This document shows, piece by piece, positions 4,336 through 41,156 of a stretch of DNA of 64,000 bases; the stretch's first letter is position 1; each line of letters begins with the position of its first letter. Source of the stretch: an uncultured Acidobacteriaceae bacterium (GTDB lineage Bacteria; Acidobacteriota; Terriglobia; Terriglobales; Acidobacteriaceae); NCBI GenBank assembly GCA_964407245.1, contig CAYOUY010000170.1:380-64379 (forward strand). Reading direction: 5' to 3'. Position numbers and translations under genes: made by a program. The notes under the pieces were generated by a model. It searched no databases. It had not been told where the DNA came from and saw only the letters and a program-made list of their open reading frames with translations.

Positions 4336-4908
4336 CTAGCTGGCGGCCTCAGCGCCCACCTTCCGATACTTCCCCCGGTAGAACACGAGCGGATCCCCCT
4401 CGCGCATCACCACATCCTCGACTTCGGCAATGAAGATCGTATGATCACCGGCCTCTTCGGCCGAGCGCAACCGGCACTCGAGATACGCCAACGAACCATG
4501 GAGCACGGGAGTTCCATGGCGGGTGCGGTCGAAACGGGCGCCGGCCACGGCCTCAGCATCTACGTCCCTGCGATCGGCGCGCGCATAGTACTCGGAAATC
4601 GCCCGTTGGTCCGCGGAAAGCACATTAACCCCGAAACGCTTCTTCGCATGCAGATGCGCGTGCGTCGACGCCTGGCGATCGACGCAGACCAGCACCAGCG
4701 GCGGATCGAGCGAGACGGAGGCGAACGCGTTGGCCGTCATTCCATGGACTGCGCCATGAGTTGCCCCGCCAGCGGCTCCGTGAGGCTCGTCGCGGGCCTT
4801 CCCTGGAAGCACGCCGCGCCTTTCTTCGCCGAGATCGAGCGTGAGAATCGTCACGCCCGTGGCGAAGCAGCCCATGGCTTTGCGAAAATCGGCCGGATTC
4901 ACGCTCAT
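4336..4908 (-). CDS. flavin reductase family protein (FMN-binding split barrel, HpaC-like)
   Basis: FRKAMGCFATGVTILT...GMTANAFASVSLDPPLVLVCV...FGVNVL is typical of the flavin reductase domain. Confidence 0.85.
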   Translation of the reverse strand: MSVNPADFRKAMGCFATGVTILTLDLGEERRGVLPGKARDEPHGAAGGATHGAVHGMTANAFASVSLDPPLVLVCVDRQASTHAHLHAKKRFGVNVLSADQRAISEYYARADRRDVDAEAVAGARFDRTRHGTPVLHGSLAYLECRLRSAEEAGDHTIFIAEVEDVVMREGDPLVFYRGKYRKVGAEAAS

Positions 4909-6202
4909 GATGCAGCCAACCGGCCTACATTACCACGCGCCGCCGTTGTATATTCGAGGCGTGTCCCTGACCTGGGATGGACCCGCGAAATCGACCGCAC
5001 AAAACCTGGGGCCGAGCTTCGCTCGGCCGGACAGCCGAGGGCGGCTGTCCCTACACAACATTCGGCGCGGCGTTCCAGTTTCCCGTGACGCCGCTCTCGC
5101 ACTCATCGAGTGCTCCGACCACAATCTTCCCGAGCTTCTCGCCGCGGCGCGCGCCGCCAAGGAGCGTTTCAAGCCCGGCGTGATCACCTATTCGCGCAAA
5201 GTGTTCATCCCGCTGACCAACCTTTGCCGCGACTACTGCGGATACTGCACCTTCCGCCGCGATCCCGGCGACCCGGGCGCGCATACGATGACGCCCGACG
5301 CGGTTCTGGAAGTCGCCCGCGCCGGCGAAAAGCTGGGATGCACCGAGGCCCTCTTCAGCCTGGGCGACAAGCCCGAACTACTTTTCCCTGAAATGCGCGA
5401 GACGCTGCGGCGGCTGGGCTACAAGTCCACGCTGCACTATCTCGAAGCCATGTGTGAGCTCGTGCTGCGCGAGACCACCCTGCTGCCGCATCCAAATCCT
5501 GGCCTGCTCAGCGCCGAGTGGATCGCCCGCCTCGCTCGCGTTTCCCCCAGCATGGGTCTGATGCTCGAAACCACAAACGAATCGCTACTGGCTCCCGGGA
5601 AAGCCCACGACAACGCACCCGACAAAGTTCCCGCCAGACGACTGCGCACCATCGAAGACGCCGGCAAGCAGAATGTTCCGTTCACGACAGGTCTGCTCAT
5701 CGGCATCGGCGAATCGCCCGAAGACCGCGTCGACACGCTCCTTGCCATTCGCGATTTGCACGAGCGTTACGGCCACATTCAGGAAGTGATCGTGCAGAAC
5801 TTTCGCGTCAAGCCTGCGATTCCCATGGCGCACTGGCCCGAGCCCTCACACGGCGACATGTTGCGCACCGTGGCGGTAGCTCGGTTGTTACTCCCTGACG
5901 TCAATATTCAGGCTCCGCCCAATCTCTCAGCGCCTTACTATGAAGAGTTAATCGATGCGGGCATCAATGACTGGGGAGGAATTTCGCCGCTGACGCCGGA
6001 CTACATCAATCCGGAAAAGCCCTGGCCGCACCTGGAGCAGCTTCGCTTGCGCACTGAGGCGAGGGGATGCACGCTGAGCCAGCGCCTGCCGGTCTATCCG
6101 GAATTTCTGCCCGCGCTCATATCGAAGCCCGGCCTCCTGTCGAAGAAACTGCGCGCGGCGGCTGATGATCACGGCATGGCAAGAATGGCGAGGGCGGCAT
6201 GA
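4907..6202 (+). CDS. cofG: 7,8-didemethyl-8-hydroxy-5-deazariboflavin (FO) synthase subunit CofG, radical SAM
   Basis: VITYSRKVFIPLTNLCRDYCGYCTF radical-SAM CxxxCxxC and full-length CofG-like sequence. Start uncertain: ATG 4907/4910, TTG 4946 or GTG 4961. Confidence 0.88.
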   Translation: MMQPTGLHYHAPPLYIRGVSLTWDGPAKSTAQNLGPSFARPDSRGRLSLHNIRRGVPVSRDAALALIECSDHNLPELLAAARAAKERFKPGVITYSRKVFIPLTNLCRDYCGYCTFRRDPGDPGAHTMTPDAVLEVARAGEKLGCTEALFSLGDKPELLFPEMRETLRRLGYKSTLHYLEAMCELVLRETTLLPHPNPGLLSAEWIARLARVSPSMGLMLETTNESLLAPGKAHDNAPDKVPARRLRTIEDAGKQNVPFTTGLLIGIGESPEDRVDTLLAIRDLHERYGHIQEVIVQNFRVKPAIPMAHWPEPSHGDMLRTVAVARLLLPDVNIQAPPNLSAPYYEELIDAGINDWGGISPLTPDYINPEKPWPHLEQLRLRTEARGCTLSQRLPVYPEFLPALISKPGLLSKKLRAAADDHGMARMARAA

Positions 6203-6215
6203 AGGGAAACACAGG

Positions 6216-7202
6216 ATGATTTGCGTTCTGAGCGGCGGCACTGGCGGCGCGAAGTTCGTCGACGGGCTGCGCCAGGTCATGCCTGCGGAGGAAATCACGA
6301 TCGTCGTCAACACCGGCGATGACCTGCTGTGGTGGGGCCTGTACGTTTCGCCTGACATTGATTCCATCACCTATGTTCTTTCCGGCATGTTGAGCCGCGA
6401 GCGCGGCTGGGGCGTAAAAGGAGACACGTTTCTTTGCCTGCAGGCCATGGGACAGCTCGGCGAACCGACGTGGTTTCACACCGGTGACCGCGATCTGGCT
6501 ATGCATCTGCTCCGCTCGCGCCTGCTGGCCGAAGGCAAGACGCTCTCGGAAGCGACCGCGGTTGTTTCCAGCAAACTGGGAGTGAAAGCTCGGGTGCTGC
6601 CCATGAGCAATTCGAGGGTGGAAACCCGCATCGACACGCCAAACGTCGGCGAGTTGAGCTTCGAGGAGTATTTCGTGCAGCGCTGGTATCAGGATCCGGT
6701 GCGCTCAGTGCGCTTTGCCGGGGCCTCCGACGCCGAACCTGCACCCGGCGTCATCGACGCGATCACGACGGCCGACGCCGTCATCATCGCGCCCAGCAAT
6801 CCGGTCACCAGCATCGGCCCCATTCTCGCGGTGCCTGGCATTCGCGACGCCTTGCTGCGCGCGAAGGGGAAAATTGCCGCCGTCAGCCCCGTCGTGGGCA
6901 ATGCCCCGGTCGCGGGTCCGGCGGGAATTCTCATGGCCGCGCAAGGCCTGCCGTGTTCGATCGCGGGCGTGGCGCAGGTCTACGAGGATTTTCTCGATCT
7001 TCTCGTCTGCGACACGCGCGACGCCCGCGCCGCCGAGGTTCTGCGCCAGAAGGGACTGCGCATGCAGTGTACTCAGACCATTATGCGCAACGCCGACGAC
7101 AAGGCTGCATTGGCACGGGAGGTCCTGTCGCTCGTAGTCGGCAGCCTGCTGAAGGAAGAACCTGCCGCTGGTGCTTTCCGGCGTCTGGAACCCGAGCCGT
7201 GA
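6216..7202 (+). CDS. cofD: 2-phospho-L-lactate transferase (LPPG:FO transferase)
   Basis: MICVLSGGTGGAKFVDGL N-terminus and full-length CofD-like sequence. Confidence 0.9.
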   Translation: MICVLSGGTGGAKFVDGLRQVMPAEEITIVVNTGDDLLWWGLYVSPDIDSITYVLSGMLSRERGWGVKGDTFLCLQAMGQLGEPTWFHTGDRDLAMHLLRSRLLAEGKTLSEATAVVSSKLGVKARVLPMSNSRVETRIDTPNVGELSFEEYFVQRWYQDPVRSVRFAGASDAEPAPGVIDAITTADAVIIAPSNPVTSIGPILAVPGIRDALLRAKGKIAAVSPVVGNAPVAGPAGILMAAQGLPCSIAGVAQVYEDFLDLLVCDTRDARAAEVLRQKGLRMQCTQTIMRNADDKAALAREVLSLVVGSLLKEEPAAGAFRRLEPEP

Positions 7203-7912
7203 GCGTCTCTCCGGTAATCGTTTCTCCGGTAGTTTTGGTTCCCGTCAAGAATCTGTCTTCCGCCAAGCAGCGGCTGGCCGCTGTTTTGGACCAGCCATCA
7301 CGCACGGCATTAGCGCAGGCGATGCTCGAAGACGTTCTCGCGACTTTGCATAATTGGAAAACGCAGGGCTGGAAGCTGCGGTCACTGGTGGCAATCGTGA
7401 CCAGCGATCCTTACGCAGTTCAACTGGCGAACACGTACGGATTTGAAATCATTCCCGACCCCGACAATCCCGGCGAAACCGGCGCCATCGAGATGGCCAC
7501 GCGAGTTTGCGTGGAGCGCGGAGCCGGGAGCACTCTGGTGATCCCCGCTGATATTCCTCTGATTCAAGCCTGGGAACTCGAGGAAATGCTGAAGCGCGCC
7601 CCTGCAGAAGGGAGCGTGCTGGTTCCCGCTGCCGATGGACGCGGCACCAACGCCGCTTTCCGCCGGCCAGCCAATCTTTTCCCGCTGCGCTTCGGCAACG
7701 ACAGCTTCAAGCCGCATCACGCCGCCGCGCAGGCGACCGGCAAGCCATGTGTTGTGCTGCACCTACCTGGGATTGCCGTCGACGTGGACAATCCCTCTGA
7801 CCTGCAACATCTGCTCTCGCTTCCCGGCGAAACGTGCGCCCAGCGGCTTGGCCGCAAATACGTAGAAAACGGAAAGGCCAAGGCTCTCGGGCCGCAGACC
7901 GCGAGACGCTGA
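7199..7912 (+). CDS. cofC: F420 biosynthesis guanylyltransferase (CofC/FbiD family)
   Basis: VLVPVKNLSSAKQRLAAVL...AMLEDVLATL motif. GTG start overlaps the cofD stop (GTGA). Confidence 0.8.
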   Translation: MSVSPVIVSPVVLVPVKNLSSAKQRLAAVLDQPSRTALAQAMLEDVLATLHNWKTQGWKLRSLVAIVTSDPYAVQLANTYGFEIIPDPDNPGETGAIEMATRVCVERGAGSTLVIPADIPLIQAWELEEMLKRAPAEGSVLVPAADGRGTNAAFRRPANLFPLRFGNDSFKPHHAAAQATGKPCVVLHLPGIAVDVDNPSDLQHLLSLPGETCAQRLGRKYVENGKAKALGPQTARR

Positions 7913-7934
7913 CTCCCTTACAATTCCCCTGCCG

Positions 7935-8696
7935 ATGCCATCGCACTCCGAACTTCGCGTCATCCCCGTCTCGCTCTCAGGTGAAATCCGCCACGGCGAT
8001 TCCATCGCCGAAAAACTCCTTGCATCTCTCCGCCGGCGCCGGTTCCGGCTTCACTCCGGCGACATTCTGATCGTGAAACACAAGATTGTTTCGAAGGCCG
8101 AGGGCCGGCTGGTGGACCTGGCGACGATCGTGCCGTCGGCTGAGTCTGTGGCCTGGGCGGAACAATACGCGCTTGATCCGCGCGTGATTGAACTTGCCCT
8201 GCGCGAGAGCCGGGCGGTTATCCGGCGCAAGAACGGAGTGCTGATCACCGAAACGCATCACGGTTTTCTCTGCGCCAACAGCGGTGTCGATGTTTCAAAC
8301 GTCGACGGCGGCCGCCACGCCGTCCTACTTCCCGAAAATCCCGACGGCTCCGCCGCGAATTTACGTCGCGAGCTAAGAAAACGCACCGGGCTTTCTATCC
8401 CGGTCATCATCACCGACAGTTTCGGTCGTCCCTGGCGCGAAGGACTAACCGAGTTCGCGATCGGCATCGCGGGGATGAAGCCGTTGCGCGACGATCGGGG
8501 CCGCCGCGATCCTCACGGCTACGAACTTAAAGCCAGTGTGGAGGCGGTCGCCGACGAACTGGCCTGCGCCGCGGGCTTGGTCTGCGGCAAACTCGAGCGC
8601 ACGCCCGCGTGCGTAATTCGCGGATTCCGGTATGAGCCAGGCGCTGGCAGCATACGCGACCTGCTCCGCCCTGCAGCCAGTGACCTGTTCCGGTAG
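7935..8696 (+). CDS. cofE: coenzyme F420-0:L-glutamate ligase, stand-alone
   Basis: GDILIVKHKIVSKAEGRLVDL...ANSGVDVSN...ITDSFGRPWREG. 253 aa with no C-terminal nitroreductase domain. Confidence 0.85.
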   Translation: MPSHSELRVIPVSLSGEIRHGDSIAEKLLASLRRRRFRLHSGDILIVKHKIVSKAEGRLVDLATIVPSAESVAWAEQYALDPRVIELALRESRAVIRRKNGVLITETHHGFLCANSGVDVSNVDGGRHAVLLPENPDGSAANLRRELRKRTGLSIPVIITDSFGRPWREGLTEFAIGIAGMKPLRDDRGRRDPHGYELKASVEAVADELACAAGLVCGKLERTPACVIRGFRYEPGAGSIRDLLRPAASDLFR

Positions 8697-8699
8697 ACT

Positions 8700-9971
8700 G
8701 TGTTCGACGACTTTTGCTCTTGGGAGAATCTTTTGGCCCGTGAACTCACACGTTCGGAACTAGAATCCTTTCCCAGCCTCGACTGGGCCGACGTCGCACC
8801 GCGACTAACTCCATCCTCCCGCGCTTCGCTCGAAAAAATCCTCGAAACACAGAACGGCACCGATCTCACTCTCGACGAATCCTACGCACTCGCCAATGCC
8901 GAAGGCGATGACCTTCTCGGCCTGCTCGTTGCCGCTGACATTCTCCGCGCGGAACTCGTTGGCAATATCGTCACCTACGTCGTCAACCGGAATATCAACT
9001 TCACCAACATTTGTTTCGTAGGATGCAAGTTCTGCGCCTTCAGCCGCGGTCCGCGCGAATCCGACGCATATTTCCACTCTCTGGAGGAGATGGCCGAAAA
9101 GGCCCGCGAAGCGTGGCGTTTGGGCGCGACTGAAGTCTGCATCCAGGGCGGGCTGCCGCGCGATCTGCCGAAGTTCTACTATCGTGACATTCTGCGGGCC
9201 ATCAAATCCGCCGTCCCGCGCATGCATATCCATGCTTTCTCGCCGATGGAAATTGTTTACGGCGTCGAGCTGACGGGTATGCCGCTCGCACACTATCTCT
9301 CGATGCTGCGTGACAACGGGCTTGGTACGCTGCCCGGCACCGCCGCCGAAATTCTGGACGACGAAATCCGCCACATTCTCTCCGCCAATAAACTCTCTAC
9401 CGCAGAGTGGATCGAAGTGATCCGCACGGCTCACCGCTGCGGCATCCGCACAACCTCGACGCTGATGTACGGACATGCCGAGACGCCTGCCCACTGGGTC
9501 CGCCAGATGCGACTCCTGCGCGACATTCAAAACGAAACCGGAGGCTTCACCGAGTTCGTGCCGCTCGGCTTCGTGCATCAGAACACGCTGCTCTTTCACC
9601 AGGGACTGGCGCGAAGCGGCCCCGCGCTGGCCGAACATTTGAAAGTTCATGCGCTGGCCCGCATCCTGTTCGCCGGCTCGATCAACAACATTCAGGTTTC
9701 GTGGGTGAAGCTGAACCGGCGGTTGTCGCAACTCTGCCTGCACGCCGGCGCTAACGACTACGGCGGCACGCTGATGGAGGAAAACATTTCCCGCGAAGCC
9801 GGGGCCACGGCCGGCCAGTACACCAGCCCGGAAGAATTTCAGTCGCTGATTCTTGAAATCGGCCGCATTCCGGCCGAGCGCAACACGACCTATTCGCGTA
9901 TCCAGATCAAGCTTCCGTTCAACGAAGCCGAATTCACCGCCGAGGAAATGCTCGAGGCCGAGTTCGCATGA
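8700..9971 (+). CDS. cofH: FO synthase subunit CofH, radical SAM
   Basis: NINFTNICFVGCKFCAFSR radical-SAM motif and full-length CofH-like sequence. GTG start. Confidence 0.9.
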   Translation: MFDDFCSWENLLARELTRSELESFPSLDWADVAPRLTPSSRASLEKILETQNGTDLTLDESYALANAEGDDLLGLLVAADILRAELVGNIVTYVVNRNINFTNICFVGCKFCAFSRGPRESDAYFHSLEEMAEKAREAWRLGATEVCIQGGLPRDLPKFYYRDILRAIKSAVPRMHIHAFSPMEIVYGVELTGMPLAHYLSMLRDNGLGTLPGTAAEILDDEIRHILSANKLSTAEWIEVIRTAHRCGIRTTSTLMYGHAETPAHWVRQMRLLRDIQNETGGFTEFVPLGFVHQNTLLFHQGLARSGPALAEHLKVHALARILFAGSINNIQVSWVKLNRRLSQLCLHAGANDYGGTLMEENISREAGATAGQYTSPEEFQSLILEIGRIPAERNTTYSRIQIKLPFNEAEFTAEEMLEAEFA

Positions 9972-10702
9972 GCGCGAATCCTGCCGTTCCTATTCGACCG
10001 ATCGCGATCATCGGCGGCACCGGCCCAGCCGGTATGGGACTGGCCCTGCGCTGGGCGCGCGCGGGAGAAACCATCATCATCGGCTCGCGCGACGAGCAGC
10101 GCGCGCAACTGGCGGCCGCGGCGATTCAATTGAAGGCGGGAAGTCAAGCGAACGTGTCCGGGATGGAGAACAGCGCCGCCTGCGCCGCCGCCGACATCCT
10201 GGTGCTCACCGTTCCATTTGAAGGCCAGGCTGCGCTGCTCAAGCAGTTGAAGCCTGCCATGACGGAAGGCAGCATCCTGATTGACGCGACGGTGCCGCTC
10301 GCTGCCAGCCTGGGCGGACGCGCCTCTCGGACGCTGGGCGTCTGGCAAGGGTCGGCGGCGCAACAGGCCGCCGAACTTGTGCCCAAGGAGGTCAGCGTTG
10401 TGGCGGCTTTCCACAACGTCTCTGCTGATCTTCTTAATAACCTCGGAAGCAATGACCTCGGAAGCACCGGCGACGCGCCGCTGGACTGCGATGTGATCGT
10501 TTGCAGCGACGATCCCGATGCGGCTCAGCTTACCCGCGAACTGGCTGCCAAGATTCCCGGCGTGCGCGCCATCGACGGCGGCAGACTCGAAAATGCGCGG
10601 ATCGTCGAACAAATCACGGCGTTGCTCATCGGCCTCAACATCCGGCATAAAGGCCACGCCGGCATCCGCATCACCGGGTTGCCGCCGGCGGCTTACCGCT
10701 AA
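9968..10702 (+). CDS. npdG: NADPH-dependent F420 reductase
   Basis: IAIIGGTGPAGMGLALRWARAGETIIIGSR Rossmann N-terminus and Npd/FNO-like length. ATGA overlap with cofH. Confidence 0.82.
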   Translation: MSANPAVPIRPIAIIGGTGPAGMGLALRWARAGETIIIGSRDEQRAQLAAAAIQLKAGSQANVSGMENSAACAAADILVLTVPFEGQAALLKQLKPAMTEGSILIDATVPLAASLGGRASRTLGVWQGSAAQQAAELVPKEVSVVAAFHNVSADLLNNLGSNDLGSTGDAPLDCDVIVCSDDPDAAQLTRELAAKIPGVRAIDGGRLENARIVEQITALLIGLNIRHKGHAGIRITGLPPAAYR

Positions 10703-12357: not shown

Positions 12358-12497
12358 AGAGAAGCGTCATCCAAAGCGGCCGGGAAGTACCTCGAACCGG
12401 CCAATCGCCCCCCGTACCGAGCAAAGCTGTTTTTTTGTAATAGTTTACAAGAAGTTGTCTCCTGGGGTGTTGGGCTGAGAAGCCACAGTGAATTCAC

Positions 12498-12573
12498 CTG
12501 CAGGTTACGTATTAACTTGCAGGTTTAGCACATTTATGTTTAATTGTAATTGCAGGTTTAATATTAACCTGCA
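12498..12573. promoter_or_regulatory. two inverted-repeat operator-like sites in an AT-rich promoter region
   Basis: IR1 is TGCAGGTT-acgtatt-AACtTGCA (12499-12521). IR2 is a perfect TGCAGGTT-taatatt-AACCTGCA (12551-12573). Centres are about 52 bp apart, and IR2 ends 30 bp before the ATG at 12603. Confidence 0.55.
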
Positions 12574-12602
12574 AGTTTCAGCTCTAAAGCTTCGCGCGTC
12601 CA

Positions 12603-13646
12603 ATGTACCTCAATCGACGACAGGACGACGGTGTTGATGCGGAGGTCGGAAACGCGCTTATTGAGGTGAAGTTTGCGACGGATGCGCTGCGAACGGTGCG
12701 AACGGGGTTGATGCAACTTGCCTACGCTCTGAGCCGACGCCCTAATTCCGAGGGCTATTTGGTCCTAGTTAATTCTGGAATTACGGCGGTGCGGTTAAGG
12801 AAAGAGTGGGAACGGACCAAGTCAGTTCTAAATCCTCAGATCGCAAAGAGAATCACGTTGTGCAAGAAGGAGAAAGATGGGTATCTGGGAATTCCTGACA
12901 TCTTGACCGGGGAGATGCAGTCAATTCTGGATAACGTAGTCGTGAGCGAACAGGCTCGGAGTGGCATGAGACTTCTGCGGCCCGACTACACATTGATAAT
13001 CGCGAAAATCCTTTTGAATCGCTGGGCGACCAGCGAAAAACCAGTTACAGCCGATCATCTGGCTCAGGTCGCGGGATGCAGCTACCCGACCGTTGCCCGC
13101 GCAGTGGGCCAACTCGGAAGCCTGGTGGAGCGTACTTCTGATCGGCGAATATCCCTCCGGTACTTTCCAAAGGAAATCTACTTTCGGCTCGCCGCCAACT
13201 CAGACAAATTTCGTGCTTCGACTCGATACTCGGATAGCACGGGTCAGAGCCGCCCTCCTGAGAAGCACGTCAAACGAATTGAACAGCTCGATGTACCGGG
13301 ACTAGCCCTCGGAGGTGTCTTGGGAGCGCGCCACTACTGCCCCGATCTGAATCTCGTGGGCACGCCACGCCTCGACCTAGAGCTTCATGCGTATCGTTGG
13401 AGAGTGGGTTTGGAGTTCATGAAGGAACTAGATCCGGCTTTGCGAATCGAACCGGACCCGCTCAAGCCCGCGAATGTTGTCGTCCACTTCATTCAACAGA
13501 AAGACCCGTTATTCACTCGGCGCAACGAAGGACTCCAATGGGCCGACCCCATGGATTGCCTCCTCGACCTGCAAGAAGCAAGGTTGGATGAGCAAGCGTC
13601 CCAGTTCATGAGAGCCGCAGAGCACCACCAGCTTAGAATCGAATGA
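12603..13646 (+). CDS. HTH-containing AbiEi-like protein with an N-terminal D...ExK nuclease-like motif (putative antitoxin/regulator)
   Basis: Central wHTH-like [30 protein letters not shown]-terminal ...GGVLGARHY...[13 protein letters not shown] resembles the AbiEi C-terminal domain. N-terminus carries [15 protein letters not shown]. Confidence 0.5.
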
Positions 13647-14590
13647 ATGGCGAACTCAAAGAAGTTTCTCCGAAGGCCGTACTCGCCAAAGTGGCTGCTG
13701 AGATCCCTCCGGAGGTCAAGGGGAACATCGTCATCATTGGAAGTCTCGCAGCCGCCTATTGGTTATTCAAGAACGAAGAGTCTTTCGGAGTGCGCACGAA
13801 GGATGTTGACTGCGTCCTCTCACCTCACTACACGGCCGTCCAGAACGGGAAGGTGATTGCCGAACGGCTTTTGGCGGCGGGATGGCGGCCGAGGGAGACG
13901 GGAGGCATATTCGATCGACCTGGCGATGAGAGCACGCCCGACGCAGAACTGCCGGCGGTCAGGCTATATCCGCCTGGGGGAGGAGATTGGTTCTTAGAAC
14001 TGATTACAGAAGCCGCTTCCGAGGAGCAACAGAGCCGGGTATGGACCCGGCTGCCGCTCTCCTCAGGGGATCACTATGGCTTACCCAGTTTTCAATTCAC
14101 CACCATCGCGACCTTCGATGCCAAGGAAACAGAGTTCGGAATCAAGTGCGCACTACCAGAAGCGATGGCGCTGGCGAATTTGCTAGAACATCGTGAATTC
14201 AAGGACGATACAATAGAAGGCACGGATTACATGGGGCGGCCGCATAAACGCCGATGCAAAGACCTGGGTCGAGTTCTGGCCATCTCGGTGCTCAGTGAGG
14301 ATATGGAGGATTGGGTGACGCCCTGGACCCGTTCCCTTCAATCGTGCTTCCCAACGAGGTGGCGAGAGTTGGCAACCTCAACTGGAAAGGGGCTTCGCAG
14401 GCTGCTCCACAGTCCGGAAGATCTACAAGAAGCAACGGTCTTGTGCAACAACGGATTGCTCTCGCAGCGCAATAGAACAGCGGACCAGCTTCAAGCCGCT
14501 GGGTCGCGTCTTCTCGCCTACGCAGTGGAGCCAATCGAAAAACTTGGAGCCGGTGCTGTGGTAAGGAACGGTGAAGCGCCGAGGATGTAG
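13643..14590 (+). CDS. Pol-beta-fold nucleotidyltransferase, AbiEii/DUF1814-like (putative toxin/effector)
   Basis: [10 protein letters not shown]...RTKDVDCVL (GS...DxD), a downstream acidic strand DWFLELI and [17 protein letters not shown] overlap with the upstream gene. Confidence 0.55.
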
Positions 14591-14604
14591 TCGGCCGGAG
14601 CTGT

Positions 14605-14673
14605 GCCGTCCCGGATTTATTTCCGCACCTATCTAAATGCCGCGGCGGAAACGGGTTTCGGGAACGGGACGGC
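14605..14673. terminator. long imperfect hairpin between convergent genes
   Basis: GCCGTCCCG...CGGGACGGC outer arms with nested TTTCCGC...GCGGAAA. No clear U-tract. Confidence 0.35.
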
Positions 14674-14715
14674 CACGCCCTAGTTCGCCCCGGGGAAAAG
14701 GCTACGGGCGGCCGC

Positions 14716-18564: not shown

Positions 18565-18769
18565 TGAGAGTTATCTCTGCGCACCGCACAAACTCAGGCC
18601 GCCCGGACCGGAGATTGCACTGGCTCTGGTTGCGGCTTTTTCCTCAGGAGCGCTGCTGAAATCAGTGTCATTACCAGCACCGATCCGAGTCGGCCGTTTG
18701 AGGTATTGCGCCCTGTCGATGAACTGAGTACCATGCCGCCTATTGGGGCTTGCCGGAGTTTGCGCGCCA

Positions 18770-21400
18770 ATGACGGATCAGACTGTCTCGCACTATCGCA
18801 TTCTCGAGAAGCTCGGTGCGGGCGGCATGGGCGTGGTCTACAAAGCTGAGGACATCCGCCTCGGCCGCATGGTCGCCCTGAAATTCCTTCCCGACAACGC
18901 CATTCGCGATCCGCGTGCGCTGGAGCGCTTCAAGCGCGAAGCGCGCGCCGCCTCCGCCCTCGACCATCCCAACATCTGCACCATCTTCGAGATCGACGAA
19001 GACGAGGGCCGTCCCTTCATCGTTATGCAGTTGCTGCAGGGCGCCACGCTGCAGGCGCGCATCGGCTACAGGCCGGTTCCGCTGGGAACGCTGTTCGACT
19101 GGGCGCTGCAGATCATCGACGCGCTCCAGGCCGCGCATACCAAAGGCATCATCCATCGCGACATCAAGCCAGCCAATGTCTTCATCACCAATACCGGACA
19201 GGCGAAGATTCTGGACTTCGGCCTGGCCAAGCTCACCGGGCCCGATCTGTCCAGCTCCGAAGGACCAACCCTCACCTCGACCGGCCCGCTCACCCACTCG
19301 GGCGCGGCCATCGGCACGGTGGCCTACATGTCGCCGGAACAAGCACGGGGGGAGCAGCTCGATGTGCGCACGGACCTCTTTTCGTTCGGCGTTCTGCTTT
19401 ACGAGATGGCGACGGGCAAGCAGGCCTTCTCCGGCCCCACCTGGGCCGTGACTGTCCATGCCCTCCTGGGCCAGGCTCCCATGGCCCTGAATGAGTCCGT
19501 GCCCGGATTGCCGCAGCGCCTGCAGGAGATTATCGACAAGTCGCTGGTGAAAAACCGCGAGATGCGCTACCAGACCGCAGCGGAGATCCATCGCGATCTC
19601 CTGGAACTGAAGAAGGACTACGAGGCCGGGAAAACGCTCAAGACGGTGCGCAGGGCAGCGGTGTGGTCGCCGCGAAGGAAGCTGCGGTTCGCCCTGGGCG
19701 CGTTGGCCGCAGTTTTGCTGGTGGCCGCAGTGTTCTGGGGGACGAAAATCTTGCGCCGCCTGGCCACGCAGGTCGTTACCACGCAAGGCGTGCAACCGGC
19801 GGCGCCAACGAGCGCGCGCAACAGCATCGCCATCCTGCCGTTCGCCACAGTCGAAGGCGATCCCAAGCTGACCGCATTCGGCAAAGGATTGCTGGAAGAC
19901 GTGGCGGCCAAGCTTTCGCAATTAAGCGCCAATCATGGCCTGGAAATCGTTCCGGCGCGAACGCTCGAAGACAAGAAAATCGCGTCGCTGGCAGATGCCT
20001 CCCGCGAACTGGGCGCGAATCTCGGCCTCGCCGTCTCGCTCGAACAGGCGAACGATCTGGTGCGCGCTTCCTACAGTCTGACCGACGCCAAAAGCGGCAA
20101 GAACGTCGGCGGAGATTCGATCACCGCGCCGGTTTCCGATCTGTTTACGATTGAAGACAAATTGACGAGTGGCATCGCCCGCGCACTCAATATTTCGCTG
20201 CGCACAGAAGAGCGGCAAGCGCTGGACACTCACGCCACCATCGTGCCTGAGGCCTATCAGTACTTTCTCCAGGGCGTAGGCTATCTTCAGTCTCAGCATC
20301 AGCGAGACGCGTTGACCAGCGCCGAGATCATGTTCAAACAGGGGCTCAAGCTGGATCCGAATTACGGTCCGGCGGAAGCGGGCCTGGGTGAAACATACTG
20401 GTTCTTCTATGACCTGACGAAGCAAAAGAATTGGATGGAGCAGGCGCAGCAGGCCTGCGCCAAAGCGATCGAACTGGGCAATGCCGGAGCCGAAGGCCAC
20501 ATGTGCCTGGGCACCATCGAGAACGGGACAGGACAATTTGAGAAAGCCGCCGAAGAGTTTACCCAGGCCATTCAGCTCGACCCCGTTAACGATCAGGCCT
20601 ATCGCCGTCTCGCCGAGGCCTACCAGAATCTCAATCAGCTCGACAAGGCCGAGGACACCTACAAGCGCGCCATCAGCCTCCGCCCCGACTTCTGGCACAA
20701 TTACAGCGCGCTGGGTGTCTTCTATTTCGGCGAGGCCGAGTACGACAAAGCGCAGGCCATGTTCCAGAAGGCGGTATCGCTACGGCGCAACAATTACGGT
20801 GACTATAGCAATCTGGGCGCAGTGTTGCTTTACGAAGGCAAAGACGAAGAGGCGACTCAGGCCCTGGAGGGATCCATCGCCATTCGGCCATCGTACGAGG
20901 CTTACCAGAACCTGGCCGAGGCCTATTTGCGGCTACGCAAGTTTGATCTGGTCGCCCGGAACATTCAGGCAGCTCTGAAACTGGACGACACCAACTACCA
21001 GACCTGGGGCAACCTGGGCGAGGCCTACTATTATGGCGGCAACAAACCGGCGGCTGCGGAGACTTACAAGAAAGCTATCTCCATGGCCGAGCAGCAGCTC
21101 AAGATCAACCCGCGCGATACCAACGTCCTGATCGATTTGGCCACCTACTGGGCCATGCTCAACGATCGCACCCGTGCCCTCGCCTATCTGGACCGCGCTA
21201 TGGAGGGTAACAGGAAGGACAAGGAGTTGCTTTTCCAGGCTGCTCTGGTGTACAACCAGTTGCGCGAAACCGGCACCGCTTTGGAGTGGTTAAGTAAGGC
21301 TCTGACCGCGGGGTACTCGAAGGCCACGGTAAGTAAGACTCCGGATCTGGATAACCTGCACGACAATCCCCGCTACCAGGCCTTGATGCACCAGAACTAA
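18770..21400 (+). CDS. Ser/Thr protein kinase with TM segment and C-terminal TPR repeats
   Basis: Hanks motifs GAGGMGVVYKA, HRDIKPANV, DFGLAK and YMSPEQ. TM helix LGALAAVLLVAAVFWG. Multiple TPR units. Confidence 0.92.
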   Translation: MTDQTVSHYRILEKLGAGGMGVVYKAEDIRLGRMVALKFLPDNAIRDPRALERFKREARAASALDHPNICTIFEIDEDEGRPFIVMQLLQGATLQARIGYRPVPLGTLFDWALQIIDALQAAHTKGIIHRDIKPANVFITNTGQAKILDFGLAKLTGPDLSSSEGPTLTSTGPLTHSGAAIGTVAYMSPEQARGEQLDVRTDLFSFGVLLYEMATGKQAFSGPTWAVTVHALLGQAPMALNESVPGLPQRLQEIIDKSLVKNREMRYQTAAEIHRDLLELKKDYEAGKTLKTVRRAAVWSPRRKLRFALGALAAVLLVAAVFWGTKILRRLATQVVTTQGVQPAAPTSARNSIAILPFATVEGDPKLTAFGKGLLEDVAAKLSQLSANHGLEIVPARTLEDKKIASLADASRELGANLGLAVSLEQANDLVRASYSLTDAKSGKNVGGDSITAPVSDLFTIEDKLTSGIARALNISLRTEERQALDTHATIVPEAYQYFLQGVGYLQSQHQRDALTSAEIMFKQGLKLDPNYGPAEAGLGETYWFFYDLTKQKNWMEQAQQACAKAIELGNAGAEGHMCLGTIENGTGQFEKAAEEFTQAIQLDPVNDQAYRRLAEAYQNLNQLDKAEDTYKRAISLRPDFWHNYSALGVFYFGEAEYDKAQAMFQKAVSLRRNNYGDYSNLGAVLLYEGKDEEATQALEGSIAIRPSYEAYQNLAEAYLRLRKFDLVARNIQAALKLDDTNYQTWGNLGEAYYYGGNKPAAAETYKKAISMAEQQLKINPRDTNVLIDLATYWAMLNDRTRALAYLDRAMEGNRKDKELLFQAALVYNQLRETGTALEWLSKALTAGYSKATVSKTPDLDNLHDNPRYQALMHQN

Positions 21401-21833: not shown

Positions 21834-22263
21834 GCTCGAACCGGAACAGTTGGAACTCGGGGCGCGGGCTTACTCGACGTTGCTGCGCCCCTTCCTCATC
21901 TTTTGCCGCCTCCAGAAGGTTCTGAATCTCCCCATCGCCGGAGCCGACCGGCCCTGTCAGCGCTTCTTCATTCCTCCTAATTCTTCCCGGAAAACTGAGC
22001 CCAATTGCAGTTTGGTCAGATGGCTTCTGCAGGATTTGTTTAAGCAGAAGATCTGATGGTCGTCCTCGCAAAGGGCAGGGCAATTAGAAGCCTGCCAGGA
22101 GGCCGTGCAACCCTCCGCAAGGTGCAAGGTGTCAAATCTGGCAGAACATTTTTTCGAGGCGGGGCGGAGGTTCCTTCTCCTGTACATGCAAAAAAGTATT
22201 CGCTGTGCGTTCTTTAAGTGAAGAGATAACAGGCTGTTGACGGGGCATTTGTGTGGAGGATCG

Positions 22264-25200
22264 ATGACGCGACGCCACTCGCAGGGGATCTCTGTCCGTT
22301 TGATTGTTTTTTCTGTTGCCGCTTTCGCTGCGGTCACCACTATTCTCAGTCTGCGCACGGCTGAGGCTGGGGCACCAGGGCCTTCTCTCATCGCCACATA
22401 CGCCCACGGCGTGCTGCGGGTGACCATACCGTATCGTGATGTCGCAACGGGAGCCGGTCAGCTCACCCTGCAATTACTCGATCCGGAAGATCACGTCGTT
22501 GGCCGGACAGAGCGGCGCCTCAAAACCGAAACCAGCTCCGGACGATGGAAAGAAGAGATTCATCTGGAAAAGCCGCTGCCGGTGGAAGATCTGGTCTGGC
22601 ACCGGGTGCGCTATCGCTTCGAATACGACGCCAGGAAAGTTGCAGCATTGGAGGGGACGGAGTCGCTTTCGCAGATTCTGCGCAGGCCGGTGATTCACAT
22701 TCTGGGACAGCAGTCGTATCTGGCCGGCGGGCAGGCGGCGGTGCGGGTGATCGTCAGCGATTCTCAGGATCAGCCAATCGCAGGCCGCGGATTGCTGGAA
22801 ATCTCGCTTCTCGAGGCAGACAAAAAGCCGCAGATTCTTTTTGAAGGCAGATTGAATCGCCGGGGAACAACCGAGGCGCAGTTCCACCTTCCGCCTGGAC
22901 TGATTGGCAACTATCAGCTGCGCTATGTCGCCGACACAACCATTGGGTCGACGGAGTTTTCCCAGAATGTTCGCTTGGAAGATAAAGTTTCCATTCTTCT
23001 GACAACCGAGAAGCCGATCTATCAGCCGGGGCAGACGATTCATGCGCGGGCGCTGGCATTGAACCGTGCCGACCATGCGGCAGCGGCGAAACGCAATCTG
23101 ACATTTGAAGTCGAGGATTCACGCGGCAACAAGGTTTTCAAGAAAGCCACCGAAACTGATGAGTTTGGCGTCGCCTCGGCCGAGTTCGCTTTGGCCGACG
23201 AGGTGAACCTGGGCACGTATCACCTGCGGGCCTTGTTGGGCAATGCCGATGCCCCGACGAATACCAGCGAGATCGCCGTCAATGTAGAACGATACGTTCT
23301 CCCGAAATTCAAAGTGGCGGTGGAATTTGGAGAAGAAGGAAAGAAACAGAAGCGCGGCTACCAGCCGGGCGATCACGTCATCGGTAAGGTGCGAGCGAAT
23401 TATTTCTTCGGTAAGCCGGTCGACAACGCCGAGGTGAGCATGAAGGCCTCGGCCATGGATGTGACCGTGTTCGAAGCGGGAACCGCTGAGGGGAAGACCG
23501 ACGCAGACGGAAATTATCATTTTGATATTGCCTTGCCGAAGTATTTCGCCGGCCGACCTCTGAGTCACGGCGTGGCGGGCGTGCTGATCGAGGCCACCGT
23601 CAAGGATTCCGCCGGCCATGCAGAAACGCGCGGGGAGCCGATTACGGTCAGCGATTCTCCGATATTAGTAACAGCAATCCCCGAGGGGGGAACGCTCGTT
23701 CCACATCTGGAGAATCAGGTGTTTATCCTTGCTTCCTATCCTGATGGGAGCCCGGCTAAGGGCATTATCACGGTTCGCGCTAGCGGCAGCACTGCTCAAG
23801 CGCTTTCCACGGATGAGGGAGGCGTGGCCGTCGCATACGTCACGCCAGAGGCCGGTAAACAGACGCTGGAAATTGAAGCCGCGGATCAGGAAGGAAACCG
23901 AGCCTCGAGCAAAGTGGAAGTGGAGGCTCGGGAGGGAGAAGAGCAGATTCTGCTGCGAAGCGAGCGCGCGGTATATCGAGCGGGGGAAGTGATTCACCTG
24001 AAGGTGTATTCCACGAATGCTCGGGGGGCTGTTTATGTAGATGTCGTGAAAGATGGGCAGACGGTGTTGACCCGCGACCTGGATATTGAAAACGGGCAGG
24101 CAGAGCTGGAGGTGCCGGCTACGTCCGAAATGGCGGGCACGCTCGACCTGGGCGCATACCTATTCGGGCGCGACGCCCGCCCGATCGGCGACCACCGGCT
24201 GATCTTCGTGCAGCCGGCGGACGAACTGAAGATTGAAACGGTGGCCGACGCCGCCAGCTACAAACCGGGCAGCGACGCCCGCATTCAATTTCGTGTGACC
24301 AATTCGCACGGCCAGGGAGTACACGCCGCGCTTGGACTTCAGATTGTGGATGAGGCGGTGTTCGCGCTGGCCGAAAAACAGCCGGGATTTGCCAAAGTGT
24401 TCTTTTATCTCGAGCAGGAAGTGATGAAGCCGCGCTACGAGATTCACTCCGTTGGTATGTCCGAAGTCGTCGGGTCGGGAGAACAGTCGCGGTCAGAAAA
24501 CAACGAACAGCGTGATCGGGCCGCCAGAGCTTTGTTTTCGGCCACGGAGATCGTGACGGCCAACAAGTTTGAGACCGAATACGGCAAGGACCTGCCGATG
24601 ACGAAATATGGCGAATACCGCCAGCGTTATCAGGCACGCTTTCAGGCGCAGGCGAATGAACTGGCGAAAAAGCTGACCAGGTCCTACCTGGAGAATCCGA
24701 AGGCCGGCGATCCCAGCCACGTCTATCGCGCGCTGGTTCGCTCAGGGGACGCCGCATTTCTTGATCCATGGGGCAACCGGCTGCGCTTTGAACCGGCGTC
24801 GTGGGACGCCTCCAGGAAGTATTACATCGTGCGCAGTCCCGGTCCGGACCATGAATTCAATACGGGCGATGATTTTCAGGCGATCCTGCTGTTTCAGCGG
24901 GCATGGATTGCGGGACCTCCAGGTCCTGACGCTTCCACGCTCGCCGTCACCATTGAGCACGATCGGGGGCCAGTGAATGGCAAAGCTCAAATCGTTGGAA
25001 CGGTCACGGATCCAAGTGGCGCAGTCGTACCGGGCGCTAAGGTCGAAGTGCGCGACGCAGCAAAGAATCAACCGTTGACAGCCAGCGCAGACGCGGTGGG
25101 GCAATTCAGCTTCCCGGCAGTTCCCCCAGGGGAATACAGGATTCAGGTCTCGATGGCCGGTTTCCGGATGGCGGCAGGGAAATGCAGCCTGCGCGCAAGG

Positions 25201-36517: not shown

Positions 36518-37891
36518 GTGGCTCAGGTACAAACCAAGCCGGTTGAGTATCCGACGCACTCCGAGGTCGAAGAAATCCGCAAGCCGGAATTCGACATGCC
36601 CCCTTCCCAAGGGGTATCGCTCGGCCATCTTCGAGTGATGTGGGAAGGGCGACGTCTGATTGCGAAGGTGGCTTTCGCCAGCTTACTCACAGGGACTCTG
36701 CTGGCTTTCCTCCTACCCACGCGGTACACCTCGACCGCAAGGCTGATGCCCCCAGACAAGCAGTCGGGCCAGGGGATGGCAATGTTGGCGGCATTGACAG
36801 GCAAGGCCAACGGTCTGGCTGGGATGGCTGGCGATCTGCTTGGGATGAACACTACGGGTGCCGTTTTCGTCGGCATCCTGGAGAGTGATACCGTTCAGGA
36901 TCGGCTCGTACAGCAGTTTGATTTGAAGCGAGTTTACTGGGACCGGTTTGATGAGGACGCACGCAAGGACCTAGCCGACCGGACAAAGATTACCGAGGAT
37001 CGAAAGAGCGGAATCATCACGATCAGCGTCACGGACAGAAAACCTGCCCAAGCCACCGCGATGGCGCAAGCTTATGTGGATGAACTAAACCGGCTGGCCG
37101 CAGAACTTTCTACCTCCGCGGCCCACCGGGAACGGGTCTTCCTCGAAGAGCGGCTTAAAGCGGTTAAGCATGATCTGGATCAAGCGTCGGTGGATTTTAG
37201 CGACTTCTCCAGCAAGAACGCTGCGATCGATATCAAGGAGCAAGCGCGGGCCATGGTGGAGGCGGCCGCACAACTGCAGGGCGAACTGATCGCCGCCGAG
37301 GCGCAACAAAAAGGTCTCGAAGCGATCTATTCCTCCAATAACCCGAGGGTGCGGGCCGTCGAAGCGCGCATAGCCGAGTTACGCAGCCAACTCGAAAAAC
37401 TCGGCAACGCAGGAGTGAACGGGGAGACCACCGGAGAGCTCTATCCTTCCATCCGCAAGCTGCCGATTCTGGCGGTCAGATACGCCGACCTGTATCGCGA
37501 AACGAAGATCCAGGAAGCGGTTTACGAAACCTTGACGCAGCAGTATGAGCTGGCCAAAGTGCAGGAAGCCAAGGAAACCCCTACGGTAAAAGTGCTCGAC
37601 CCGGCCAGCCGGCCCGACCGCAAGTCGTTTCCGCCTCGTATCGTCATCATTCTGCTGTGCACGACATTTGGCCTGGTGGCCGGCTCATTTTGGGTTGTCC
37701 TGCGTGATCGCTGGGACCGGACGGAGGCGATGGATCCCCGCAAGATTTTAGCTGCGGAAGTCTTTCACTCCGTAAACGGCTACATGCCGTGGTCGTCGCC
37801 CAACGGATCGCGGGTGCAGGCCCTTGCTCACCGCGTGTGGATGCGCTTTGTGTCGCGAAAAAGTGGGCCCGAAGCTTTGGACGAATCCTAG
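36518..37891 (+). CDS. polysaccharide co-polymerase / chain-length determinant (Wzz/GumC-like), no kinase domain
   Basis: N-terminal TM followed by TRYTSTARLMPP, a long coiled-coil periplasmic region and a C-terminal TM. No Walker motifs. Confidence 0.8.
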   Translation: MAQVQTKPVEYPTHSEVEEIRKPEFDMPPSQGVSLGHLRVMWEGRRLIAKVAFASLLTGTLLAFLLPTRYTSTARLMPPDKQSGQGMAMLAALTGKANGLAGMAGDLLGMNTTGAVFVGILESDTVQDRLVQQFDLKRVYWDRFDEDARKDLADRTKITEDRKSGIITISVTDRKPAQATAMAQAYVDELNRLAAELSTSAAHRERVFLEERLKAVKHDLDQASVDFSDFSSKNAAIDIKEQARAMVEAAAQLQGELIAAEAQQKGLEAIYSSNNPRVRAVEARIAELRSQLEKLGNAGVNGETTGELYPSIRKLPILAVRYADLYRETKIQEAVYETLTQQYELAKVQEAKETPTVKVLDPASRPDRKSFPPRIVIILLCTTFGLVAGSFWVVLRDRWDRTEAMDPRKILAAEVFHSVNGYMPWSSPNGSRVQALAHRVWMRFVSRKSGPEALDES

Positions 37892-37916
37892 AGACCTCAA
37901 GATTCTTAGCCTCAAA

Positions 37917-39485: not shown

Positions 39486-39497
39486 ACGAGGCCTCCC

Positions 39498-40313
39498 TTG
39501 GGATTCAAAACGCTTTTCCAGAAGCTGCGTCTGAAAGCTTCTCCTTATCATTGCGCGCCTGGGAGACTGTCACTCAAGCACGTGTCGCTCAGCCACCCTT
39601 CCGTTGGACGGTTCGACTTGGTTGTACCCAGGAATGAGGACGTTGGAAGGCTTATTTATTATCTTCGAACCTACGAACCAGAGTGCACGGAATATCTCAT
39701 GCGGTTGCTCCGTTCTGATGACATTTGTTTTGATGTGGGTGCCAATCTCGGGTACTACACGGTTTTGATGGCGAAGGCGGTCCCCCGCGGACGAGTGTAT
39801 GCCTTTGAGCCGGATCCTCTCAGCCATGCGTTGTTGCAATTGAATGTGCGCATGAATCGGCTGGGGAACGTGATCACAAACGATTTGGCACTGGGAGATC
39901 GAACAGGTACGTCGACATTCGTGCAGTGCACAGATAGCGCTTTCAACTCCTTCAAGGACACTGCCAGGAGGGCGGTATTGAACGAAATTGAAGTTCCGGT
40001 GACCACCATCGACGATTTCATGGTCGAACATGGTGTACCTCGAGTAGATTTCGTCAAGATGGATGTTGAAGGGGCGGAAGGCCTAGTTCTGTGCGGAGCA
40101 AGAAATCTGTTGCGGAATTCTGCGCTGCGCCCTCGAATGTTGCTGTCTGAACTGTTTGACGAAAACCATAAAGCCTTCGGCGACTCTGCGGCTGAGATCG
40201 TTGAAAGTCTCCGACGATCTGGATACGAACGCATCTGGCCCGCGGGCAATGGATCAGGACCAGACCTGATCAATGGTTTCTTCGAGGCCAAGCGTGAACC
40301 GGCAGCTGCTTAG
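39498..40313 (+). CDS. FkbM family methyltransferase
   Basis: CFDVGANLGYYTV...YAFEP...VDFVKMDVEGAE motifs. TTG start uncertain. Confidence 0.8.
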   Translation: MGFKTLFQKLRLKASPYHCAPGRLSLKHVSLSHPSVGRFDLVVPRNEDVGRLIYYLRTYEPECTEYLMRLLRSDDICFDVGANLGYYTVLMAKAVPRGRVYAFEPDPLSHALLQLNVRMNRLGNVITNDLALGDRTGTSTFVQCTDSAFNSFKDTARRAVLNEIEVPVTTIDDFMVEHGVPRVDFVKMDVEGAEGLVLCGARNLLRNSALRPRMLLSELFDENHKAFGDSAAEIVESLRRSGYERIWPAGNGSGPDLINGFFEAKREPAAA

Positions 40314-40322
40314 CCCAAAGTT

Positions 40323-41129: not shown

Positions 41130-41156
41130 GGGTGTTCACCAGGTTTCGGAGCTTGC

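Follow-up and report, generated by a model that had tools for sequence, protein, structure and literature searches.

Positions 12358–14715 of a 64,000-nt stretch of DNA from an uncultured Acidobacteriaceae bacterium (contig CAYOUY010000170.1; the whole stretch is called the window, and coordinates given without a locus name are positions in it) hold a cassette of two overlapping genes, open reading frames (ORFs) A and B. By analogy, this cassette most likely works like the toxin-antitoxin (TA) and abortive-infection systems AbiE and MenAT, a reading to which we give a probability of roughly 60%. ORF B is modelled as a Pol-beta-fold nucleotidyltransferase (NTase) of the JHP933/MenT type with an intact catalytic constellation, and ORF A as a three-domain DNA-binding protein. 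Since no family model recognises either of them, the A-B family is probably an undescribed branch of this kind of TA and anti-phage module. Judged by sequence, it is a separate, unannotated lineage and belongs neither to DUF1814/AbiEii nor to AbiEi.

The gene pair and its distribution

A reading of the cassette from its sequence only had described two genes joined by a 4-nt ATGA overlap, and both ORFs are present as claimed (Table 1). A genome scan returned 164 relatives, and 80 loci were examined. ORF A lies directly upstream of ORF B on the same strand in 79 of the 80; in the exception ORF B is found at a contig edge. The co-location expected of the homologs is thus seen in 79/79 informative loci, and the overlap of exactly 4 nt is kept in 44 of the 66 intact ones. 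A conserved third gene was not found, the largest neighbour cluster occurring in 6/80 loci, and a third module gene was rejected as a candidate because no neighbour is common to more than this number of loci.

The carriers include Verrucomicrobiota, Acidobacteriota, Planctomycetota, Myxococcota, Eisenbacteria, Ignavibacteriota, Nitrospirales and Anaerolineales, and furthermore Lentisphaerae, Bacteroides, Gemmatimonadaceae and Alpha- and Gammaproteobacteria, more than 10 phyla in all. These multi-phylum relatives are patchily distributed (46–66% identity). Most of them belong to little-studied phyla of soil and freshwater. One of the carriers is cultured, Pedosphaera parvula Ellin514 (WP_007417715.1), which makes experiments feasible.

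The cassette had also been described as more AT-rich than its flanks. This is real and clear at third codon positions, where the GC content (GC3) is 0.60/0.61 in the cassette genes versus 0.71–0.77 in five flanking genes, but as bulk GC the difference is only modest (0.552 versus a window mean of 0.580, with 8.8% of equal-sized segments equally low). The intergenic region upstream of ORF A has a GC content of 0.46. The third-position composition of ORFs A and B is foreign, and the cassette is horizontally acquired. Patchy multi-phylum spread together with foreign codon usage point to a mobile accessory module. A-B is a conserved, translationally coupled and horizontally scattered two-gene module.

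The two genes do not decay equally. Broken copies of ORF B were met in 7 loci (3 with in-frame stops and 4 with frameshifts) and of ORF A in 1, a bias with a one-sided P of about 0.03 by a binomial estimate. Such a bias is expected if B is the harmful partner. Errors in metagenome-assembled genomes (MAGs) may contribute to these pseudogene counts.

Table 1. Positions of the genes, domains, motifs and predicted operators of the A-B cassette in the window
Feature	Position	Strand	Remarks
Operator 1	12496..12524		Imperfect palindrome ACCTGCAGGTTA-N5-TAACTTGCAGGT; 12-nt arms, 92% complementary; inverted-repeat search
Operator 2	12550..12574		Perfect palindrome TTGCAGGTT-N7-AACCTGCAA; 9-nt arms, 100% complementary
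ORF A	12603..13646	+	347 aa; putative autorepressor/antitoxin, three domains
ORF A N-terminal domain, aa ~1–120	12603..12962	+	Alpha/beta; no family or structure match
ORF A central winged helix-turn-helix, aa ~129–186	12987..13160	+	MarR-type; PDB profile match, Foldseek
ORF A C-terminal domain, aa ~200–340	13200..13622	+	Alpha/beta; most conserved part; may be NTase-like (G237-G238 ... D258)
Stop/start overlap of A and B (ATGA)	13643..13646	+	4 nt; translational coupling
ORF B	13643..14590	+	315 aa; Pol-beta-fold NTase, putative toxin
NTase motif I, G33-S34	13739..13744	+	Invariant in alignment
NTase motif II, T52-K53-D54-V55-D56	13796..13810	+	T, K, D and D invariant; T52 candidate phospho-acceptor
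Third catalytic carboxylate candidate, E119	13997..13999	+	Strand WFLEL; invariant; model strand E117-122
K206-D207-L208-G209-R210	14258..14272	+	Variant DUF1814 motif IV (+DxxD); K, D, G and R invariant

The two proteins and the predicted operators

The AlphaFold (AF2) model of ORF B (predicted local distance difference test score, pLDDT, 88.6; predicted template-modelling score, pTM, 0.88) is confident and begins with an alpha/beta core, after which comes a helical domain, the two-domain fold seen in JHP933, MenT3 and MenT4. In a Foldseek search the top match was JHP933 (4ok0/4o8s, probability 1.00/0.98), and further matches were Cid1, Pol lambda, CapRel and GLD-2. The earlier call of a Pol-beta NTase is thus upheld by structure prediction and Foldseek.

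ORF B has 1434 homologs, all of them unannotated and without Pfam domains. An alignment of 50 sequences (32–59% identity) revealed G33-S34, A36, T52-K53-D54-x-D56, L76, W81, E119, A170, K206-D207-x-G209-R210 and W224 as invariant. With the invariant G-S, T-K-D-x-D and E119 the catalytic set of an NTase is complete, and the likewise invariant K-D-x-G-R adds a basic-Asp motif, which opens a helix of the C-terminal helical domain. T52-K53-D54-x-D56 has the arrangement [ST]-[KR]-D-x-D, as do S78-K79-D80 in MenT3 and T39-R40-D41-x-D43 in MenT1; the AbiEii equivalents are T65/D67/D69. In MenT and AbiEii toxins, the Ser/Thr of this position is an auto-phosphorylation site used by the antitoxin to silence the toxin.

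The motifs that the sequence-only reading had picked out in ORF B need one correction. Its signature GS-x20-TKDVD is present as IIGS...TKDVD, but the spacer from S34 to T52 is 17 residues (19 to D54). The acidic strand DWFLELI is found as written. The further string likened to that of AbiEii/DUF1814 toxins is also there. Of the DUF1814 motifs, III is missing and IV modified.

Divergent members of the B family give weak Pfam matches to NTP_transf_8 and DUF6036, two other families of the NTase clan (best E about 0.008), never to PF08843, and profile searches of the PDB sequences with the close or the diverse ORF B alignment gave no match. Some homologs, P0028 and P0039 (476 aa), P0249 (427 aa) and P0318 (458 aa), have C-terminal extensions of ~110–170 aa. 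In P0028 and P0039 the extension is a Gly/Val-rich repeat region, for which one source names bactofilin CcmA. A reading of the 476-aa homologs as A-B fusions was rejected; they carry extensions of B's C-terminus instead.

All 577 homologs of ORF A are annotated as 'hypothetical' and have no Pfam domain. The AF2 model of ORF A (pLDDT 87, pTM 0.67) shows three domains, in agreement with the earlier observation that an extra N-terminal domain precedes the helix-turn-helix (HTH). Strands (E) and helices (H) of this N-terminal domain follow each other as E13-15 E18-24 H29-44 E50-56 H62-75 E84-90 E93-97 H103-119, and R30, R33, L55, R64 and E68 are near-invariant in it.

Judged by profile comparison, ORF A holds a MarR-type winged-helix DNA-binding domain in its centre, where the sequence-only reading had seen a winged-HTH (wHTH)-like segment. 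A profile of 57 diverse members matches the MarR-family structures 7krh/7kfo in the PDB with E-values of 1.2e-4 to 2.1e-4, and ArsR and the LacI headpiece more weakly. Sub-threshold Pfam matches to HTH_15, MarR_2, TrmB and Crp occur in many A members, and Foldseek matches ORF A to MarR/IclR winged helices. The only locus with an interrupted ORF A (L082, 7280–8347) has an in-frame stop after the N-terminal domain but ahead of the wHTH (profile positions 106/114), and its ORF B is intact. This would fit the wHTH and the C-terminal domain sufficing for antitoxin function, as a single MAG observation.

The 11 invariant residues of the diverse A alignment are all located in the C-terminal domain (R217, G238, P255, R256, D258, D277, H295, F304, D322, L323 and Q331). 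In the model, the order helix-strand-GG-helix-strand(D) of this domain resembles a minimal NTase core. This is noteworthy because the structural neighbours of the AbiEi C-terminal domain are also NTases (PMC7319586). An hhalign comparison of the A and B profiles gave one weak match, of A 216-249 with B 7-45, the motif-I region (P 0.025, probability 2%). The C-terminal domain of A was rejected as a paralogue of B, hhalign giving a probability of 0.05% with close and 2% with diverse alignments; as the part that aligns is the one expected, this likeness was kept as a weak hint. Searching the PDB and BFVD with the whole chain of A in Foldseek gave no match at E<=1e-3; weaker whole-chain matches were to giant-virus poly(A) polymerases and wHTH proteins. 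The multi-domain model of A probably defeats global matching. The sequence-only reading had likened the C-terminal domain to that of AbiEi; GGVLGARHY and the second string given as evidence for this are present, but no AbiEi profile matches.

AbiEi and Rv2827c bind paired inverted repeats in their own promoters, and paired operators had been proposed for the cassette as well. Two near-identical palindromes are indeed found upstream of ORF A, operator 2 being a direct repeat of operator 1 at a spacing of 52 bp and ending 29 nt before the start codon. Operator 1 has the family core TGCAGGT-N9-ACTTGCA, and the window has 7 occurrences of the core pattern where 0.85 are expected; 0/100 shuffles reach 7. 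A palindrome TGCxxxT-N9/10-AxxxGCA is located upstream of A in 54 of 76 related loci (5.9 expected), in 18 of them in two or more copies. Furthermore, the half-sites co-vary by lineage (TGCAGGT, TGCAACT or TGCGACT), as is expected of a co-evolving repressor-operator pair. Two one-mismatch matches to the half-pattern, 42 bp apart at 36350–36409 on the minus strand, are not palindromic and probably due to chance. A search for a sigma-70 promoter and an intrinsic terminator gave no candidate above shuffles, and an RNA component (a type III-like antitoxin or a riboswitch) gave no Rfam match at E<=1.

Relation to AbiE, MenAT and other modules

AbiE, consisting of the AbiEi antitoxin and the AbiEii (DUF1814) toxin, is a type IV (recently reclassified as type VII) TA and abortive-infection system. 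Like the cassette, it is bicistronic, with the DNA-binding gene first and an overlapping toxin gene, it has paired promoter palindromes, and it is found beside or inside Type I restriction-modification (R-M) loci. In genuine AbiE operons an antitoxin of ~255–278 aa precedes a toxin of ~300–312 aa, and the genes overlap by 8–20 nt, or lie 13 nt apart in Providencia. AbiEii resembles ORF B in its size of ~300 aa, in its Pol-beta NTase core followed by a helical domain, and in having G-[GS], [ST]-x-D-x-D and a basic-Asp motif that starts a C-terminal helix. AbiEi resembles ORF A in combining a wHTH with a conserved C-terminal domain. The proposal that gene order, overlap, size and paired operators fit an AbiE-type module therefore stands; all of them mirror AbiE and are conserved across ~80 loci.

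There are also clear differences. The spacer between motifs I and II of ORF B is 19 residues versus 15–16 in AbiEii, the Lys/Arg of motif III is missing, and K-D-x-G-R, preceded by an insertion of ~20 residues, takes the place of +DxxD. ORF A, with 347 aa, is larger than AbiEi (~260 aa) by an additional 120-aa N-terminal domain, which leaves the wHTH in a central position. The operators of the cassette are, unlike those of AbiE, 23–25-bp palindromes with a TGCxxxT core. Most importantly, neither A nor B has detectable sequence homology to AbiE, be it by Pfam, NCBIfam, PADLOC, hhalign or unfiltered HMMER.

No significant match for ORF A or B of the window was found in Pfam, PADLOC, NCBIfam or PHROGs. 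The PF08843, NCBIfam AbiEii/AbiGii and PADLOC AbiE models gave none at E<=10 for ORF B of the window and 55 close and 50 divergent members, and the AbiEi models (Pfam AbiEi_1/3/4, NCBIfam) none for ORF A of the window and 56 close and 57 divergent members. The suspicion that neither protein fits a textbook family was thus well founded. The assignment to AbiEii/DUF1814 and AbiEi fails at the level of sequence, with hidden Markov model (HMM) searches of Pfam, NCBIfam and PADLOC for 105 B and 113 A members and hhalign all negative. When 1.84 billion cluster representatives were searched exhaustively by HMMER with the B-family profile, 540 matched at E<=1e-3. Such a small number indicates that the B family is compact and, at HMMER sensitivity, disconnected from DUF1814, a very large superfamily.

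For a direct comparison, genuine PF08843 proteins were fetched with a bait peptide of DUF1814 motif words. The bait carries no evidential weight; its matches were validated by PF08843 labels and PGAP names, and eight PGAP-annotated AbiEi-AbiEii plasmid operons were compared. Hhalign gave a probability of 0.5% (E 0.13) for B against 8 genuine AbiEii and of 0.15% (E 0.39) for A against 7 genuine AbiEi, in both cases no better than cross-controls. The best E-values of unfiltered hmmsearch runs with the AbiE profiles were 3.4 against 270 B-family and about 1 against 177 A-family sequences. The AbiE reference alignments contain few sequences, all of one proteobacterial branch; with the broad Pfam model, the 105 members gave just as little. 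A motif regular expression for genuine DUF1814 genes found no candidates in the examined loci.

The genuine AbiEii alignment shows the motifs LKGGTA, R-L-S-V-D-I-D, IKIE, GGKLxAALDR and RDLFD, and that of AbiEi shows HVGGxTAL and STPERAxLExL. Motifs I and II of AbiEii (hG[GS]-x15-DhD, with a basic residue and, two residues ahead of the first Asp, a Ser/Thr phospho-acceptor) have counterparts in ORF B at the wider spacing, and the third acid corresponds as well, E119 being analogous to IKIE by position. In motif IV, K-D-L-G-R of ORF B matches R-D-L-F-D-V of AbiEii in its basic-Asp start and in the hydrophobic pattern that follows, but not in the second Asp.

The MenAT systems of Mycobacterium tuberculosis (MenAT3, MenAT4 and MenAT1) share with the cassette the [ST]-[KR]-D-x-D active site, with the Ser/Thr phospho-acceptor in MenT, and the upstream position of the antitoxin gene. 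JHP933 is the closest structural relative of the MenT3 toxin and the nearest neighbour of the MenT fold type. In contrast to ORF B, the MenT toxins are DUF1814 members, and no MenT structure was among the top 50 Foldseek matches of ORF B. Their antitoxins, a 7-kDa peptide in the case of MenA1 and AbiEi homologs with two domains in that of MenA3/4, also differ from the three-domain ORF A. JHP932-JHP933 from the plasticity zone of Helicobacter pylori (PDB 4O8S/4OK0) likewise consists of two overlapping genes arranged as in a TA system, one of them for a putative NTase. JHP933 differs from ORF B in being shorter (225–232 aa resolved) and is only 9–12% identical to it in sequence. The MarR-family repressors resemble ORF A in their winged helix, which matches the central domain, and in the palindromic operators upstream of their own gene. 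They are single-domain dimers of ~150 aa, whereas in ORF A two more conserved domains are present and the gene is always paired with that of an NTase.

If the cassette works like AbiE and MenAT, ORF B would be a Mg-dependent NTase that stops growth through nucleotide addition to the 3' ends of tRNA or to another essential RNA, by analogy with MenT1/3 and AbiEii. An ORF A dimer would bind the two operators via its central winged helix and repress the operon, and its C-terminal domain would neutralise ORF B. Neutralisation might proceed as in AbiEi/MenA3, with A docking on B and provoking auto-phosphorylation of Thr52, two residues before the catalytic Asp54. The extra N-terminal domain, for which AbiEi has no counterpart, could speculatively be a sensor or oligomerisation module. 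Once B is released, e.g. when a phage infects the cell or A is no longer made, translation would stop, and the module would serve in abortive infection or addiction, as proposed from its likeness to AbiE and MenAT.

A more far-reaching version, which we consider doubtful, is that ORF A is itself a three-domain sensor-enzyme. Its C-terminal module, NTase- or kinase-like and containing the invariant G238, D258, D277, H295 and D322, would then covalently modify B at T52, while the lineage-specific N-terminal domain would sense a phage or stress cue and gate the reaction. If true, this would be a mechanistically distinct type VII TA/abortive-infection family, found largely in Verrucomicrobiota, Acidobacteriota and Planctomycetota. 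The candidate family is AbiE-analogous, and conceptually new only if the extra domains of A act as enzyme or sensor.

MNT-HEPN modules are, like the cassette, two-gene modules with a Pol-beta-fold NTase, but their partner is a HEPN protein (motif Rx4-6H), which is lacking here, and they have no HTH protein, as is present here. Their NTase is a minimal antitoxin of ~100–150 aa compared with the 315-aa two-domain ORF B. In the cassette the roles might correspondingly be reversed, with A as the effector or toxin (e.g. by a nuclease-like N-terminal domain) and B as an enzymatic antitoxin that nucleotidylates A, as MNT does in HEPN-MNT. Minimal NTases act as antitoxins in HEPN-MNT systems, the N-terminal domain of many A members has a D...ExK-like beta-hairpin (D12 ... 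E21-V-K23), and it is in A that the residues of highest conservation and unexplained role are found. However, D12 and E21 are not conserved across the A family, no HEPN family match was found in the A or B families, and no nuclease model matches A. Moreover, the upstream DNA-binding gene of TA operons is normally the antitoxin, B and not A is preferentially inactivated, and B is a JHP933/MenT-like protein and no minimal NTase. We regard a reversal of roles as very unlikely.

NTase toxins of the AbiE/MenAT kind are among the most abundant anti-phage/TA systems, and recent work has shown that auto-phosphorylation induced by the antitoxin controls them. The cassette family, with ~540 clusters at 50% identity, is missed by Pfam, NCBIfam, PADLOC and PHROGs, so that defence and TA surveys of soil and freshwater phyla would under-count it. 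If the AbiE/MenAT reading is true, the active-site features that the family has kept (G-S, [ST]-K-D-x-D, the basic-Asp motif and the third acid) would be the essential ones, and a toxin could do without motif III and without the second motif IV Asp. The extra antitoxin domain could reveal how such modules are triggered.

Genomic setting

Among 128 immediate neighbours of the homologous pairs, the commonest families are Type I methylase with HsdM_N, ResIII/SWI2_SNF2 (HsdR), Type IV restriction endonuclease, phage integrase and AAA_21, and there are single TOTE and PDDEXK matches. When the neighbours are clustered, HsdM, two HsdR types, HsdS and an integrase recur most often. Type I R-M subunits are located at most six genes away in 9 of 79 loci (L053, L070, L025, L033, L038, L066, L068, L073 and L078). 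The A-B pair of L053 and L070 lies between hsdM and hsdS, with hsdR a few genes downstream, and the AbiE operon of Vibrio casei plasmid 1 is comparably placed within a Type I R-M locus, between hsdS/Fic and hsdR. In L084 the pair adjoins insertion sequence elements and HsdM. By raw counts, Type I R-M, BREX, integrase and other TA genes recur among the neighbours of the homologs; the window copy lies among housekeeping genes.

In L085–L087 (1–20900), BREX genes (BrxB, BrxC/PglY-like), RadC and an ankyrin protein lie on one side of the pair. Its other side is occupied by a convergent gene for the RNA ligase RtcB and by a sigma factor, an HNH protein, PIN-PhdYeFM and ParE. For a toxin that would modify RNA 3' ends, a neighbouring RtcB is of interest, although this adjacency is seen in only one lineage. 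It could also be taken, together with the RNA terminal transferases Cid1 and GLD-2 among the structural neighbours of B, as a sign of a housekeeping or stress RNA-processing or repair unit, e.g. a regulated enzyme tailing tRNA or RNA 3' ends. The adjacency is, however, limited to one set of near-identical contigs, the patchy spread and foreign codon usage are those of a mobile accessory module, and pseudogenisation is frequent. This makes a maintenance role quite improbable.

In the window, the upstream neighbour of the cassette is a protein of 534 aa whose N-terminus contains a hydrophobic stretch like that of a signal peptide, and the downstream neighbour a convergent transporter matching MFS_3/MFS_1, which agrees with the flanks given in the sequence-only reading, a secreted-protein gene and a convergent MFS gene. 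The latter neighbour allows a further explanation, in which B is a benign NTase that modifies small molecules or antibiotics (ANT/Lnu type) and A its dedicated MarR-type repressor, the two forming an inducible resistance or detoxification cassette. The MarR-type wHTH of A, the operators and the abutting efflux-type MFS_3 transporter would all suit such a cassette. Yet the MFS neighbour is not conserved, as no neighbour recurs beyond the six loci given above, and the neighbours are R-M, BREX and TA genes rather than resistance genes (by uncalibrated counts). The best structural match of B is a two-domain NTase of the JHP933/MenT type and no ANT. A simple repressor would have no need of the two large conserved extra domains of A, and the strict 4-nt coupling and toxin-biased pseudogenes fit TA logic. 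We consider the resistance cassette unlikely.

Several observations weigh against the AbiE/MenAT reading. Profile searches, hhalign and HMMER gave no sequence link to any AbiE, MenAT or DUF1814 model. The Foldseek match of ORF B to JHP933 is borderline (E 1e-3, template-modelling score 0.39 for the query and 0.50 for the target), and the AbiEi structures 6Y8Q and 1ZEL are outside the top 50 Foldseek matches of whole-chain A. DUF1814 motif III (KLxAaxxR) has no counterpart in B, where the equivalent helix lacks a conserved Lys/Arg and H183 is near-invariant, and in motif IV an invariant Arg has taken the place of the second Asp. A Ser/Thr near DxD is found in other NTases too, which makes T52 compatible with phospho-regulation but not diagnostic of it. 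That the C-terminal domain of A may be NTase-like is suggested by weak signals, namely its topology with the GG...D pattern, the 2% hhalign match to B and the poly(A)-polymerase matches in Foldseek. The defence-gene neighbours are raw counts that are uncalibrated against the genomic background, and the window copy is a solitary insertion among housekeeping genes (F420 biosynthesis, transporter) and not part of a defence island. Finally, the module was not found in PLSDB plasmids (72,556), GenBank phages (50,697) or IMG/VR.

Inspection of the cassette borders gave no convincing flanking direct repeats or insertion scars, and neither a tRNA gene nor a tRNA-associated integration site was found near the cassette. 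The window contains three distant tRNA genes, Pro-TGG (56782–56858), His-GTG (59819–59894) and Arg-TCG (63188–63264). Directly upstream of the secreted-protein gene lies a coenzyme F420 biosynthesis operon (4841–10702) that comprises two radical-SAM genes of the CofG/CofH type, CofD, the F420-0:gamma-glutamyl ligase CofE and an F420-dependent NADP oxidoreductase. Elsewhere the window encodes a Ser/Thr protein kinase of 885 aa, a long part of which is a TPR/BTAD region (18743–21400), and a very large ORF of 1789 aa (22237–27606). The lowest GC content of the window is found at 37824–42455 (minimum 0.527 near 39051). Read by eye from the translations, this stretch looks like a surface-polysaccharide cluster, with genes for a flippase-like membrane protein, an FkbM-type methyltransferase, a GT2 glycosyltransferase and an O-antigen-polymerase-like membrane protein.

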